Positions 35,025 through 39,421 of a stretch of DNA of 64,000 nt are shown in pieces. Positions within the stretch are counted from its first letter, which is position 1. Every line of letters starts with the position of its first letter. The notes under the pieces are model-generated. The model saw only the letters and a program-made list of their open reading frames with translations, was not told where the DNA came from and ran no database searches. Position numbers and translations under genes: made by a program. The stretch comes from Escherichia phage JK1: the sequence record MZ436830.1. One strand, 5' to 3'.

Positions 35025-35154
35025 TGTTTTGTGAAAAAAATTTTTAAAAAGTTTTGGGGAATTCTAGGGCAGGGAGGGGCAATTAAAAGATAGGATAATA
35101 TATTATAAAGGATAGAAACTAAATGATGTCTAGAGAGGCCCGGAAAGGCCTAGA

Positions 35155-35189
35155 TACCAAAAAGCCCCAACCTTTTGGTCGGGGCTAAG
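35155..35189 (-). repeat. 35-nt direct repeat, copy 1 (terminator hairpin plus U-run), downstream flank of the CTS-like ORF
   Basis: taccaaaaagccccaaccttttggtcggggctaag; 32/35 identical to 35690-35724. Confidence 0.7.
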
Positions 35190-35193
35190 AATG

Positions 35194-35655
35194 TTATTTG
35201 ATTTGTTTAGCAGACCAAATGCGATCTTTAATAATTTTTTGGATGTCTTCAACATACTCTAGGTCATGAGCATGTGGATTATCTTTGAAACTATGAGCTC
35301 GCGCAAGTTTCTGGCCTTCGGTCTTAATTATCAAAAGTTCTTTAAGAATTGCTTCATACCTAGAGATAATTCCTTTAGCAATATTTTTTTCTTGTGCTGC
35401 TTTAGGGTCAGCCTTAGGAGCAGGTTTACCAGAAGGTTTTTCGAAAGCCGCACCAGTAGCAACCAGGCTTTTCCAGGCGGTGGTAACATAGTTACCCACA
35501 AAGCCTTCAGCTCTCATATCGTCATAGAACTTGTACCGAGATTCGTCAGAAGCATCTTTATAAGAATATTTACCAGCTTTAATAGCAGCAGTTGCTACAG
35601 CGCGAACATCTGAAGCGGATGCTTCGGTCATTAAAAATTGAGCATAAGTTTTCAT
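35194..35655 (-). CDS. Candidate packaged internal protein: CTS-like N-terminus, own late promoter
   Basis: 153 aa; N-terminus MKTYAQFLMTEA (CTS-like, L-x-E site); AGGAAA ribosome-binding site; TATAAATA 28 nt upstream; flanked by direct repeats. Confidence 0.55.
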   Translation of the reverse strand: MKTYAQFLMTEASASDVRAVATAAIKAGKYSYKDASDESRYKFYDDMRAEGFVGNYVTTAWKSLVATGAAFEKPSGKPAPKADPKAAQEKNIAKGIISRYEAILKELLIIKTEGQKLARAHSFKDNPHAHDLEYVEDIQKIIKDRIWSAKQIK

Positions 35656-35683: not shown

Positions 35684-35691
35684 TATTTATA
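35684..35691 (-). promoter_or_regulatory. Late promoter TATAAATA upstream of ORF 35194..35655
   Basis: Plus tatttata at 35684-35691. Confidence 0.5.
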
Positions 35692-35724
35692 CCAAAAAGC
35701 CCCAACCTTTCGGCTGGGGCTAAG
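35690..35724 (-). repeat. 35-nt direct repeat, copy 2 (terminator hairpin plus U-run), upstream flank of the CTS-like ORF
   Basis: taccaaaaagccccaacctttcggctggggctaag; hairpin 35698-35721 followed on the minus RNA by UUUUU. Confidence 0.7.
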
Positions 35725-35762
35725 CCTTGCGGCAACCTTGTCGGGGTTCCACCTGCTAAGGC

Positions 35763-36030
35763 AAGTGTTTGTACGAAACGCCGGGATTCGAACCCGGTTA
35801 TTAAGTAGTTGACGCTACTCAATATTTTTAAAAGGCCATATCTCGACCATATCCGAACGTTCCGTCAAAAACGCTACTCGGCTTATGGCAAAGATATTTC
35901 CTCGAATCGATAATTCGGTGCGCCGTTTCTGCTGTGATGTAAGAGGGCATCAATAAACGTAAAGATTATTAACGCAATTCCTTACTCAGGGAACATCAGT
36001 CCGACGACTTGCCGGTAGCGACCCGGCTTC
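35763..36030 (-). ncRNA. Possible stable small RNA(s) with tRNA-like 3' T-arm (T4 species-1/2 RNA-like), downstream of tRNA-Arg
   Basis: About 270 nt with no ORF between tRNA-Arg and the terminator; 3' end CCGGGTTCGAATCCCGG plus acceptor-like strand; cloverleaf not resolved. Confidence 0.3.
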
Positions 36031-36035
36031 TTGTC

Positions 36036-36111
36036 TGGTCGAGGCAGTAGGGATCGAACCTACGACCCAGGACTTAGAAGGTCCTTGCTCTTCCTTCTGA
36101 GCTATGCCTCG
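36036..36111 (-). tRNA. tRNA-Arg (anticodon UCU)
   Basis: Hand-folded: 76 nt, CCA encoded, anticodon loop CUUCUAA, T-arm GGTTCGATCC. Confidence 0.8.
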
Positions 36112-36115
36112 TATT

Positions 36116-36190
36116 TGGCGGACGTGATAGGATTCGAACCTATAACCAATCGCTTAACAGGCGATCGCTCTGCCATTGAGCTACACATCC
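36116..36190 (-). tRNA. tRNA-Asn (anticodon GUU)
   Basis: Hand-folded: 75 nt, CCA encoded, anticodon loop CUGUUAA, T-loop TTCGAAT. Confidence 0.7.
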
Positions 36191-36194
36191 AAAT

Positions 36195-36281
36195 TGGTGG
36201 GGAGTGGTGGAGTCGAACCACCCGAGTCGCAATGACAATGGATTTACAGTCCACACCGCTACCTCTACGGGATAACTCCCC
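36195..36281 (-). tRNA. tRNA-Tyr (anticodon GUA), long variable arm
   Basis: Hand-folded: 87 nt, anticodon stem-loop GTGGA-CUGUAAA-TCCAT, type II variable arm, CCA encoded. Confidence 0.7.
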
Positions 36282-36290
36282 AAATTAATT

Positions 36291-36365
36291 TGGTGGCCCT
36301 GGGTGGAATTGAACCACCATCTGGCGATTATGAGTCGCTTGCTTGAACCTTCCAGCTACAGGGCC
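36291..36365 (-). tRNA. tRNA with CAU anticodon (Ile via modified C34, or Met)
   Basis: Hand-folded: 75 nt, acceptor GGCCCTG/CAGGGCC, anticodon loop CUCAUAA. Confidence 0.7.
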
Positions 36366-36366
36366 T

Positions 36367-36442
36367 TGGTGCTGATTGACGGAATCGAACCGCCGACCTT
36401 CTCATTACAAGTGAGTTGCTCTACCTACTGAGCTAAATCAGC
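36367..36442 (-). tRNA. tRNA-Thr (anticodon UGU)
   Basis: Hand-folded: 76 nt, D-arm GCTCAGTAGGTAGAGC, anticodon loop CUUGUAA. Confidence 0.8.
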
Positions 36443-36447
36443 AAAAC

Positions 36448-36537
36448 TGGCGGAGGCGATAGGATTTGAACCTATGAGTCGCCGGAGCGACTGCCGGTTT
36501 TCAAGACCGGTGCATTAAACCACTCTGCCACGCCTCC
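36448..36537 (-). tRNA. tRNA-Ser (anticodon UGA), long variable arm
   Basis: Hand-folded: 90 nt, anticodon stem-loop CCGGT-CUUGAAA-ACCGG. Confidence 0.8.
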
Positions 36538-36539
36538 AG

Positions 36540-36613
36540 TCTCCATACAAGGATTTGAACCTTGGACCTCCTGATCCCAAATCAGGCGCTCTACCAAACT
36601 GAGCTACACGGAG
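36540..36613 (-). tRNA. tRNA-Pro (anticodon UGG)
   Basis: Hand-folded: anticodon loop UUUGGGA; CCA not encoded. Confidence 0.75.
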
Positions 36614-36623
36614 TAAATTAAAT

Positions 36624-36697
<74 letters not shown>

Positions 36698-36702
36698 AAA
36701 TT

Positions 36703-36789
36703 TGGTGCGAGAAGTGGGACTCGAACCCACAAGGAAATCATTCCGCAGCATTTTAAGTGCTGTGCCTTTACCAATTTGACCATTCTCGC
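36703..36789 (-). tRNA. tRNA-Leu (anticodon UAA), long variable arm
   Basis: Hand-folded: 87 nt, anticodon stem-loop CAGCA-CUUAAAA-TGCTG; one nucleotide separates it from tRNA-Gln (dimeric precursor). Confidence 0.8.
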
Positions 36790-36790
36790 G

Positions 36791-36863
36791 CTGGGAATAA
36801 AGGACTCGAACCTTTGCATCCTGGAATCAAAATCCAGTGCCTTACCAACTTGGCTAATTCCCA
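36791..36863 (-). tRNA. tRNA-Gln (anticodon UUG)
   Basis: Hand-folded: acceptor TGGGAAT/ATTCCCA, anticodon loop UUUUGAU. Confidence 0.8.
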
Positions 36864-36949
36864 ATTATTAACAAAGGCTCTCAAACAAGAACCCTTGATG
36901 ATAGAGGGTATTAATCAGTGCGGTATGAGTTAATAATAACAAATAATTC

Positions 36950-37465
36950 TTAAAGCAAATTAAACATTTTAACGGTCGGCAAAACAATTTCTTTTTCTAT
37001 ATAAGAGTATTTAACACTCTCAACTACACGCAAAAAATCATAATCATAATACTCAGAAGCACTGCCTAAAATATTAATAAGTCCTTCAAGCACTTTATTA
37101 CCATTCACAAAGAATAAGTCAAATACGCGTTCTTCGTCTTCTTCGGATTTATTACCAAGGTCAACTTCTATATCAAAGACCTTTTTAATGAATTCTGGAT
37201 AAAGTTGTTCTGAGAACAGTCCTTCAACCAAGTATTCATAAATAAAAAGCGATTGCTCGCTGAACAAGCCATTACCACAATAACGTTCAGCTTTAGTACT
37301 AGAATGTCTACTTTTAAACTTCTTTAAAAGATATTGAAATTGTAAGATTTCATGCTCTTCTACGCCAAACAGTGTTTTAGTTTTATAGTTGTCACCATCA
37401 TTTTCCCAGGTAGTGACATCAATTACGTAACCCTGCGGAATTGTAGTACCTAAACAAATATTCAT
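36950..37465 (-). CDS. Hypothetical acidic protein
   Basis: 171 aa ORF between the tRNA cluster and the internal-protein-like gene. Confidence 0.5.
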   Translation of the reverse strand: MNICLGTTIPQGYVIDVTTWENDGDNYKTKTLFGVEEHEILQFQYLLKKFKSRHSSTKAERYCGNGLFSEQSLFIYEYLVEGLFSEQLYPEFIKKVFDIEVDLGNKSEEDEERVFDLFFVNGNKVLEGLINILGSASEYYDYDFLRVVESVKYSYIEKEIVLPTVKMFNLL

Positions 37466-37755
37466 TTGCTCACCATATTAATGTAAGTATATTCAATACA
37501 TTCAAGACCCAAAGGATTCTTGAAAATATCATATTCAAGAGGACCTTTTTCCGTTTCAATAAAGAAATCAAAATTTACTGTATTAAATTTACGGTCTTCC
37601 TTCACTAATTTAACCTGAGAAGATGAACGGTCAATGTAAACCTTTTCAACTTCAAAACATGTTAAAATGCCATAATCATCAATCAAGGCTTTAGCTGCTT
37701 CTTGATCATATTTATATCCATTTTCAATGGATGATACTTTAGCATAAAGAATCAT
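37462..37755 (-). CDS. Hypothetical protein
   Basis: 97 aa; 4-nt overlap coupling. Confidence 0.5.
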   Translation of the reverse strand: MILYAKVSSIENGYKYDQEAAKALIDDYGILTCFEVEKVYIDRSSSQVKLVKEDRKFNTVNFDFFIETEKGPLEYDIFKNPLGLECIEYTYINMVSK

Positions 37756-37757
37756 TA

Positions 37758-38168
37758 TCAGCCTCTATCAACGATAGCATGAGTATGGGCATTTACGATT
37801 TGCCACCAGTCGAAACGATTGGAACCATAATCTGGTTTATTTTCATTTTCTTTAATGATATCACGCAGTTTATCTTCTGTTTCAGCATACGCAATTAAAT
37901 CATCATATCCGCCACAAGGATAATAATTATCACCTGCGAATAAAAGAAAATTTACCTTAGATGGATTTACGTAATAATGGTCTTTAGGATATTTAGTTCC
38001 TCTCCAATCAGTTACTTCAACATAACGGTAAGAAAATCCATTTTTACTTTCAATCCAACTCCACGCTTCAAAAGGAGTATTAAAAACTTTATCAGGTATT
38101 AAATTACCTTCAAAATGAGAAGGATTTGCATAATCCCCGGCATAAACATAATATTCGTTAATACTCAT
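37758..38168 (-). CDS. Hypothetical protein
   Basis: 136 aa, Tyr/Trp-rich. Confidence 0.5.
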   Translation of the reverse strand: MSINEYYVYAGDYANPSHFEGNLIPDKVFNTPFEAWSWIESKNGFSYRYVEVTDWRGTKYPKDHYYVNPSKVNFLLFAGDNYYPCGGYDDLIAYAETEDKLRDIIKENENKPDYGSNRFDWWQIVNAHTHAIVDRG

Positions 38169-38354
38169 CTATTCACCTTTAGAAATTTTATCCATAACGA
38201 TAGCGATTAAACCAATTAAAAATGCTACTACAAGTGAAAACACATTTTCTGCTGTAGTCAATAATCCACATATAAATCCAACAAACATTGAAAAACTAAA
38301 AGCGGAAGCAGAAATTGCAATAGCAACATTTCGAATTAATTCACAACGTTTCAT
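38169..38354 (-). CDS. Small membrane protein
   Basis: 61 aa; ISASAFSFSMFVGFICGLL and LVVAFLIGLIAIV hydrophobic segments. Confidence 0.45.
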   Translation of the reverse strand: MKRCELIRNVAIAISASAFSFSMFVGFICGLLTTAENVFSLVVAFLIGLIAIVMDKISKGE

Positions 38355-38382
38355 TTTATTCTCCTCGGTAGTTGATAGGGTA

Positions 38383-38412
38383 ATAGTATCACTACCCTAT
38401 CTAAAAGTAAAC
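38383..38412 (-). promoter_or_regulatory. Early promoter (GTTTAC-N18-TACTAT), copy of the module at 38683-38712
   Basis: Plus gtaaac 38407-38412, atagta 38383-38388; 24-nt ttgatagggtaatagtatcactac identical to 38672-38695. Confidence 0.5.
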
Positions 38413-38646
38413 TTATTTTTTACGAAAAATTGATTTATATTTATCAGCCCATTTCTCAATGACTTTTGCCGGGCCATAGATAACAAAGTAATCGCCAAAC
38501 TCTTCACCACCGAGTTGACCGAAATCATCTAATGCATCACGAAGAACTCCATGAGGCATTTCACCCATTTTATCTTTCTTGCCAGTGTAAATAAACTCAA
38601 CTTTTACATCAGCAGTTTCAGCAATAAATTCTTGATACGTTTTCAT
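38413..38646 (-). CDS. Internal protein with canonical CTS (IPI-like by position, just upstream of 57B)
   Basis: 77 aa from MKTYQEFIAE (exact T4 CTS decapeptide); GGAGAA ribosome-binding site; ORF track extends 6 codons upstream. Confidence 0.65.
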   Translation of the reverse strand: MKTYQEFIAETADVKVEFIYTGKKDKMGEMPHGVLRDALDDFGQLGGEEFGDYFVIYGPAKVIEKWADKYKSIFRKK

Positions 38647-38682
38647 TTTGTTCTCCAATTTCACATTTGTTTTGATAGGGTA

Positions 38683-38712
38683 ATAGTATCACTACTAAAA
38701 CCCCATGTAAAC
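38683..38712 (-). promoter_or_regulatory. Early promoter (GTTTAC-N18-TACTAT) for the internal-protein-like gene
   Basis: Plus gtaaac 38707-38712, atagta 38683-38688. Confidence 0.5.
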
Positions 38713-38724
38713 AACTTTGTGAAA

Positions 38725-39421
<697 letters not shown>

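Follow-up and report, generated by a model that had tools for sequence, protein, structure and literature searches.

An optional gene beside the tRNA cluster of a T4-like phage belongs to a phage family that recurs near tRNA and RNA-repair genes

Between the tRNA cluster and an internal-protein gene of Escherichia phage JK1, four small open reading frames (ORFs) form a compact block, which we analysed within a window of 64,000 nt (sequence record MZ436830.1; all positions are given on the window strand). Three of them are orthologues of the T4 genes trna.2, trna.3 and trna.4. The fourth, here called orf171, is an optional gene that T4 lacks, and its family, phrog_2290, recurs in other phages beside tRNA arrays and beside genes for RNA ligase, PNKP and RlaP. 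We regard the identity and the architecture of the block as all but settled. Our best explanation of the whole, an accessory block of the T4 early type in which orf171 takes part in tRNA upkeep, falls somewhat short of an even chance, and the link between orf171 and tRNA or RNA repair, which is drawn by association, is put forward tentatively.

Results

A four-gene block with three T4 orthologues

The original prediction had placed ORFs of 171, 97, 136 and 61 aa in this interval, and the ORF list agrees with it exactly, with all four on the minus strand. In the direction of transcription the order is trna.4 (38169-38354, 61 aa), trna.3 (37758-38168, 136 aa), trna.2 (37462-37755, 97 aa) and orf171 (36950-37465, 171 aa). 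The successive junctions are tight or overlapping (TAG/ATG, TGAtaATG and ATGA, the last being the overlap of the trna.2 stop with the orf171 start), an arrangement typical of phage genes whose translation is coupled. Over 1.9 kb, the region shares 99% identity with phage vB_Eco_Some, whose annotation also agrees in position and orientation, and it has matches in 848 phage records. The window phage is a Tequatrovirus.

BLASTP against T4 Trna.2, Trna.3 and Trna.4 gave identities of 97%, 100% and 100% (88 of 91, 136 of 136 and 61 of 61 residues, respectively). The T4 genes (T4p133-135; UniProt P13324 for trna.2, P13323 for trna.3 and P13322 for trna.4) occupy the same position and encode 95, 136 and 61 aa, and the gene order runs as in T4 through tRNA-Gln, trna.2, trna.3, trna.4, the internal-protein gene, 57B, 57A, gene 1, gene 3 and gene 2. 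T4 thus shares with the window the order, the strand, the flanks and a predicted promoter with a stem-loop 5′ of trna.4. The four genes had been called uncharacterised, which holds as regards function but misses that three of them are named T4 genes. All were already known and annotated as hypothetical, the fourth being an optional gene of the T2 type, and as a discovery the block is ordinary, since it represents a known kind of plastic, early-transcribed region.

All four ORFs are under purifying selection, with ratios of non-synonymous to synonymous substitution rates (dN/dS) of 0-0.55. Compared with diverged Tequatrovirus copies, the ratio was 0.13-0.24 for orf171, 0-0.55 for trna.2 and 0.23-0.24 for trna.3, and in trna.4 all of the 5-6 changes were synonymous. 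The three soluble products have acidic isoelectric points (4.62, 4.69 and 4.85) and are rich in aromatic residues (F+W+Y, 15%, 14% and 19%), both as anticipated. The 61-aa product has hydrophobic segments at about residues 10-32 and 35-57, which agrees with its earlier description as a small membrane protein; trna.4 encodes a conserved small protein in which these two segments are probably transmembrane.

Presence and absence of orf171

The region had been described as shorter in T4, and this proved right: the T4 ORF block measures 887 bp (72628-73514) against 1405 bp in the window, and the excess is a single gene, orf171. In the alignment, T4 has a clean gap of ~510 bp that opens within the final codons of trna.2 and closes within those of orf171, beyond which the sequence into tRNA-Gln is nearly identical in the two phages. 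T4 has no counterpart of orf171, and just 97 bp separate its tRNA-Gln from trna.2. The last 6-10 residues of Trna.2 differ between T4 and the window because the indel boundary falls there. Among the ~653 Tequatrovirus-like records that match the junction, 253 (~39%) carry a full orf171, including T2, RB18 and Sf21 (where it is labelled 'similar to phiD1 gp142'), and in the others the flanks are joined as in T4. orf171 is an optional gene with a presence/absence polymorphism.

A phage family with conserved polar residues

A profile search with orf171 recovered 199 homologues, mostly metagenomic, none of which carries a Pfam domain; all 108 aligned members matched phrog_2290 only. In the genomes of 185,579 species of bacteria and archaea, one genome each, we found a single locus, on a 43-kb phage-like contig of a metagenome-assembled genome (MAG), and the family is thus all but restricted to phages. 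No paralogue of orf171 was found elsewhere in the 64-kb window.

Six residues are invariant in the family (G12, E21, N22, D23, D25 and R146) at a mean column identity of 17%, and Y13, W20, G24, Y27, T29, F50, G64 and N65 are near-invariant. Most of these fall in the motif GY..x.T[ST]WENDGDNYKT, which contains an invariant WENDGD hairpin. The AlphaFold2 model of orf171 is confident (pLDDT 90.6, pTM 0.85) and predicts a beta-hairpin (12-21 and 26-35), five helices and a strand (147-156) that starts directly after R146, with the ENDGD motif at the tip of the hairpin. The pattern of invariant residues along this predicted topology would fit a metal- or phosphate-binding active or ligand site. The predicted fold is confident and has no solved structural relative; a fold search of BFVD brought up nothing but uncharacterised phage proteins from the family itself.

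Two assignments of orf171 were considered and rejected. The cRec (cyclic-phosphate-processing receiver) domain, which a jumbo-phage paper reportedly links to RNA ligases, has a (beta-alpha)5 receiver fold, with catalytic aspartates at the receiver positions, that the predicted topology does not match. A HAD phosphatase, suggested by a DGD at a strand end, appears to have the wrong fold, and there is no Pfam match to it.

Each of the four ORFs corresponds end to end to one PHROG of unknown function (E-values 6e-35 to 2e-68). The earlier statement that the products lack recognisable motifs is borne out: for all four, Pfam (in a copy without PF26894) and NCBIfam gave nothing above noise, PADLOC gave 0 families at E <= 1, and PDB sequences gave no credible match to single sequences or profiles. 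The best PDB match, an Elongator subunit at 23 bits, was dismissed as it had no significant stretch. No similarity to T4 housekeeping genes of established function turned up, the matches being to T4 genes of unknown function. A literature search by PHROG and UniProt identifiers returned only papers on T4 omics and on the defence protein DRT1; phrog_2290 may appear elsewhere under another name.

tRNA and RNA-repair genes near family members

In the window, the tRNA cluster begins 86 bp downstream of orf171 on the same strand. We compared this arrangement with 60 loci of the family on viral contigs, which collapse to 33 clusters at 40% identity and complete linkage. A tRNA gene lies within 10 kb at 32 of the 60 loci, always on the same strand; counted by cluster, 12 of 33 have one within 2.5 kb and 18 of 33 within 10 kb. 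As a rough estimate, not a computed control, a random 20-kb window in a genome with 1-2 arrays would contain a tRNA in ~7-15% of cases. The tRNA-linked lineages include Straboviridae, jumbo phages of 306-366 kb, a 41-kb contig (at 26 bp) and a 99-kb contig (at 71 bp). The unrelated jumbo phage K64-1 has a tRNA array that begins 141 bp downstream of the family gene, and in Jiaodavirus the gene sits within the tRNA cluster. T4-like phages of Aeromonas and Proteus carry it after the block of gp3, gp1, 57A and 57B, with tRNAs 2-3 kb downstream, and the locus on the MAG contig lies 1.85 kb downstream of a 10-tRNA array.

RNA-repair genes, too, recur near family members. On a 211-kb contig, genes for RNA ligase, the family protein and RlaP follow one another with 4-nt overlaps, and AAA_33, CTP_transf_like, YAcAr and Thg1 genes and a faint HD_4 hit lie nearby. 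On a 52-kb contig (L073), an RNA ligase gene starts 9 nt downstream of the family gene, and on a 130-kb contig a run of RlaP, an unknown ORF, RNA ligase and PNKP ends ~110-130 bp upstream of it. Further ligases stand at greater distances from the family gene: Rnl1 at -2.8 kb on L047, RNA ligase at -6 kb on L071, and Rnl1 at +3.6 kb with Rnl2 at +5.8 kb on L011. Among 142 neighbouring ORFs, RNA_ligase, RNA_lig_T4_1, RlaP, HAD_PNKP and Band_7 are among the commonest Pfam families, and NAD-related families (NADAR, NAPRTase, NAMPT, NUDIX) also recur. The literature ascribes to RlaP and these ligases the repair of tRNAs that host anticodon nucleases have cleaved (PMC7824862, PMC12776372).

The cassettes of RNA ligase, RlaP and PNKP contain more ORFs that lack a Pfam domain (L060 7019-7555 on the 130-kb contig; L006 4003-4752 and 7667-8074 on the 211-kb contig), and these may be further members of phage RNA-repair systems. 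A DUF2828/DUF7788 protein is encoded ~1 kb downstream of the family gene on the MAG contig (L080 7472-8908), and the same family occurs once among the viral-contig neighbours; it is presumably a TROVE/Ro-like RNA-binding family, which would be in keeping with a link to RNA repair.

Predicted early and middle promoters

T4-type hyperplastic regions contain promoter-early stem-loop (PeSL) cassettes (PMC2839356, PMC4122927). An element of this type, consisting of a predicted early promoter and a stem-loop, lies 5′ of trna.4 at 38372-38412 on the minus strand. Its promoter-like site reads TTTACT (38411-38406), N17, TACTAT (38388-38383) and overlaps a 12-bp stem-loop (~38401-38374), after which come a GAGGAG ribosome-binding site and the ATG of trna.4. 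A second copy, TTTACA-17-TACTAT, stands 5′ of the internal-protein gene (38672-38712, minus). The two form a 41-nt direct repeat, with copies 80% identical and 300 bp apart, that brackets the internal-protein gene. Both copies match the T4/PST PeSL early-promoter consensus TTTACW-N17-TAYWAT (PMC4122927), and their stem-loops have energies of -16.4 and -17.6 kcal/mol (z-scores of -3.5 and -4.6 versus shuffled sequence). T4 also has a PeSL element 5′ of trna.4, which is a hybrid of the two window copies, its -35 side resembling the copy at the internal-protein gene; this fits a recombination between copies that exchanged the internal-protein gene.

Time-resolved omics of T4 infection detected trna.2 and trna.3 early, both as RNA and as protein, and trna.4 early as RNA, with its protein undetected (PMC9697503). 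Together with the sequence of the region, these data on the orthologues suggest that the four-gene block is transcribed early from the PeSL-type promoter 5′ of trna.4.

A predicted middle promoter lies at the other end of the block (36933-36960, minus). It consists of a MotA box, TTTGCTTTA (36959-36951), a 12-nt spacer and TATTAT (36938-36933), and agrees with the middle-promoter consensus, in which a MotA box (a/t)(a/t)(a/t)TGCTT(t/c)A is followed 11-13 bp on by a TAnnnT -10 element (PMC4122927). The site reads aatTTGCTTTA, lies across the stop codon of orf171 and is directed towards the tRNA cluster. T4 has it in nearly the same sequence, and the indel has its downstream edge there.

Allelic replacement of trna.3 and the remaining genes of the block

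The C-terminal half of trna.3 is strongly conserved (NFLLFAGDNYYPxGGYxDL...FDWWQIV), is found in 770 phage records and at times forms a stand-alone ORF of ~58 aa. The N-terminal half is hypervariable and falls into at least three very different classes. The window and Sf21 share 97-100% identity across orf171, trna.2 and trna.4, and only 55-73% nucleotide identity across trna.3 (37800-38160), where the synonymous divergence (dS) is ~1.2. Relative to Sf21, trna.3 is a gene-precise allelic cassette, and the depth of this divergence indicates that old alleles have been exchanged between otherwise near-identical phages, as expected under diversifying or frequency-dependent selection. Homologues of trna.3 carry the precomputed tag PF26894. 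This cassette, the optional status of orf171 and the early expression of the T4 orthologues all agree with the original prediction that the genes are accessory.

The trna.2 family is small: an exhaustive search yielded 21 representative clusters. Two large proteins also matched, in 7 and 4 repeated stretches, but we discounted them as artefacts of repeats or composition, since their Pfam hits are numerous, weak and unrelated and none has a significant stretch. When the defence protein DRT1 was pulled down, T4 Trna.2 and Inh were among the enriched proteins, and the authors of that work went no further (PMC13275509). This is the sole experimental hint that we found at the putative anti-host role proposed for the block.

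Genes and RNAs around the block

The internal-protein gene (38413-38646, minus) encodes 77 aa from the ATG at 38646, which is preceded by GGAG and is probably the true start rather than the GTG at 38664 given by the ORF finder. Its product belongs to phrog_8111 ('internal virion protein') and starts MKTYQEFIAE, which resembles a capsid-targeting sequence. The description of this neighbour as IPI-like was apt for the targeting peptide alone: only the N-terminal targeting peptide is similar to T4 IPI (7/16 identities), and the protein is not otherwise an IPI homologue. Within this gene, identity to Sf21 dips to 65% at 38461-38520. None of the four ORFs of the block, which begin MNICLGTT, MILYAKVS, MSINEYYV and MKRCELIR, has a capsid-targeting sequence (~10 residues with an (L/I)xE cleavage site at the end). 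A motif of the MKTY..IAE type occurs only in the adjacent internal-protein gene and in a 153-aa ORF (35194-35655, minus; phrog_2280), whose basic product (isoelectric point 9.3) begins MKTYAQFLMTE. Terminator-hairpin repeats, 92% identical and reading AGCCCC...GGGGCT followed by a T run, flank the latter ORF at 35154-35189 and 35689-35724, and it looks like another exchangeable cassette. The 57B orthologue (38725-39180, minus), ~370 bp upstream of the cluster, is annotated 'RNA ligase' in the T4 record; presumably it is Acb1, a 2H-phosphoesterase that degrades CBASS cyclic-nucleotide signals.

The tRNA cluster (36036-36863, minus) comprises 10 Rfam-confirmed genes: Gln, Leu, Gly, Pro, Ser, Thr, Met, Tyr, Asn and Arg. 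T4, by comparison, has 8 tRNAs (with Ile and without Asn, Tyr and Met) together with segB, which the window lacks; the set without segB corresponds to the T2L-like arrangement that SegB homing replaces (PMC2330249). tRNA-Gln(UUG), on the orf171 side of the cluster (36790-36863, minus), differs from T4 tRNA-Gln (L001 4459-4531) almost only in the anticodon arm. There, three of five stem pairs are changed in a compensatory manner (CUGGA/UCCAG in the window, UAGCA/UGCUA in T4) and loop positions 32/38 are U/U instead of C/C, the remainder being identical. The window may carry a separate tRNA-Gln allele that matters for how anticodon nucleases recognise it. Directly downstream of tRNA-Arg, at ~35740-36035 on the minus strand, lie ~97% identical homologues of T4 rnaD and rnaC (species 2 and species 1 RNAs), which match no Rfam family at the gathering threshold.

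Discussion

Since members of its family keep turning up next to tRNA arrays and next to genes for RNA ligase, PNKP and RlaP, the most likely role of orf171 would be one in the tRNA pool. The product would be a soluble protein of a fold not yet solved, with E-N-D-G-D at a hairpin tip and an invariant Arg and a Gly-Asn pair elsewhere in the chain. Such a protein may help to keep the tRNA pool usable during infection, by acting on damaged tRNA ends or by assisting or protecting tRNA-repair enzymes or phage tRNAs. The other three genes would encode early, host-directed accessory proteins: trna.4 a small inner-membrane protein, and trna.3 a variable N-terminal domain joined to a constant C-terminal module. 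The block as a whole would have the architecture of a hyperplastic region, in which short conserved promoter cassettes let genes swap in and out; this PeSL-type modularity would explain why the orf171 indel is clean and why the internal-protein gene and the trna.3 allele have been exchanged.

Several observations weigh against this interpretation. In about half of the lineages, tRNAs and repair genes are both missing within 10 kb of the family gene. The linkage is guilt by association, measured in raw, unmatched counts, and the Straboviridae cases share ancestry and amount to roughly one event. tRNA arrays and small accessory ORFs share plastic early regions, and their proximity may be architectural. 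In the window, no RNA ligase or PNKP gene adjoins the cluster, and T4, the classic tRNA-repair phage, does without orf171. The acidic character of the product may equally suit a nucleic-acid mimic or an inhibitor. As regards expression, the promoter assignments are consensus matches only, that is, predicted sites, and a generic sigma-70 scan found sites no more numerous than in shuffled sequence.

A different explanation is that none of the four products, that of orf171 included, is connected with tRNA: all would be early proteins for general anti-defence or host takeover (inhibitors, mimics or signal sponges), and their proximity to tRNAs would be a by-product of the plastic region in which T4-like and jumbo phages house tRNAs and optional ORFs alike. 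We consider this a serious contender, if short of probable. It would suit the internal-protein genes and 57B (presumably the anti-CBASS enzyme Acb1) next door, whose counter-defence function is known or presumed, as well as the PeSL-flanked modular exchange at the cluster, the presence/absence polymorphism of orf171, the swapping of old trna.3 alleles between near-identical phages, the enrichment of T4 Trna.2 with DRT1 (PMC13275509) and the acidity of all the soluble products. It would also accommodate the ~half of phrog_2290 lineages that have no tRNA or RNA-repair neighbour, and the NADAR, NAPRTase, NAMPT and NUDIX genes that recur near the family. However, shared plasticity hardly explains direct adjacency to, or overlap with, RNA ligase, RlaP or PNKP genes in three unrelated lineages, when chance would give well under one such adjacency among ~39 lineages (an estimate, not a computed control). 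Moreover, polar residues that stay invariant at so low a mean column identity suggest a fixed chemistry, unlike the fast-evolving surface of an inhibitor, and no match was found to PADLOC models or to solved anti-defence proteins.

The neighbourhood of tRNA genes could also mean that orf171 maintains the phage's own tRNAs, through precursor processing, modification or stabilisation of the array next to it, and has no part in repair or counter-defence. In several lineages the gene does lie directly upstream of, or inside, tRNA arrays of the same strand, and read-through past the middle-promoter-like site that overlaps the orf171 stop would join the gene and the tRNAs on one transcript. We nevertheless judge this reading improbable: T4 and ~60% of Tequatrovirus-like records have a very similar tRNA cluster without orf171, many family members reside on contigs with no tRNA within 10 kb, and the neighbouring ligase, PNKP and RlaP genes speak for the repair of damage more than for maturation. 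That some of the ORFs are dispensable passengers or mis-called, as the undetected Trna.4 protein in T4 proteomics, the absence of orf171 from most close relatives and the dispensability of the region in laboratory T4 deletion strains might imply, is largely refuted and very improbable, given dN/dS well below 1 for all four genes (and not one non-synonymous change in trna.4), early detection of the Trna.2 and Trna.3 proteins in T4 infection, and retention of the orf171 family, with invariant residues and a confident fold, across very distant phages.

A bolder version of the tRNA-repair proposal can be formulated, which we offer as speculation that is more probably wrong than right. phrog_2290 might be a hitherto unrecognised, phage-exclusive component of tRNA repair or protection with a new fold, in which E-N-D-G-D, Arg146 and Gly64-Asn65 would form a metal or phosphate site; the protein would process the ends of cleaved tRNAs, or cooperate with RNA ligase, PNKP and RlaP, and so counteract host anticodon nucleases. 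Separately, trna.3 might be an arms-race gene whose variable N-terminal domain recognises a polymorphic host target.

The analysis yields a concrete hypothesis on orf171, one of the numerous functionally unassigned genes of T-even phages and a member of a widespread, phage-only family that lies outside Pfam. If the hypothesis is true, orf171 would be a new component of the oldest known phage counter-defence pathway, and this might help to explain why some T-even phages have the gene and T4 does not. The allelic replacement of trna.3 and the recovery of Trna.2 with DRT1 mark these early genes as candidates for interaction with the host.

Comparison with known systems

The closest counterpart of orf171 is the protein of T2, RB18 and Sf21, which is the same gene, 80-100% identical and at the same site in ~250 Tequatrovirus-like records; homologues in other genera are only 25-45% identical. 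The locus resembles PeSL cassettes in its consensus promoter overlying a stem-loop, in the position of the copies at the borders of variable ORFs and in the differences in gene content between close relatives. It departs from them in the bounds of the orf171 indel, which are the 3′ end of trna.2 and the MotA-box middle-promoter-like site and not two PeSL copies.

T4 IPI*, IPII and IPIII are injected anti-restriction proteins from variable loci. The four ORFs have a hypervariable neighbourhood and modular exchange in common with them and differ in timing, the T4 orthologues of trna.2, trna.3 and trna.4 being expressed early and not late.

The comparison with phage tRNA-repair modules (T4 Pnkp with Rnl1/Rnl2, and RlaP) is also mixed. 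The orf171 family has no sequence or fold similarity to ATP-grasp or RtcB ligases, P-loop kinases, HAD, 2H, HD or calcineurin phosphoesterases, or Pol-beta nucleotidyltransferases, and the association is seen in a minority of lineages. Like RlaP, however, the family is found beside RNA ligase and PNKP genes and also in tRNA-rich phages, and in one lineage its gene lies between those for the ligase and RlaP.

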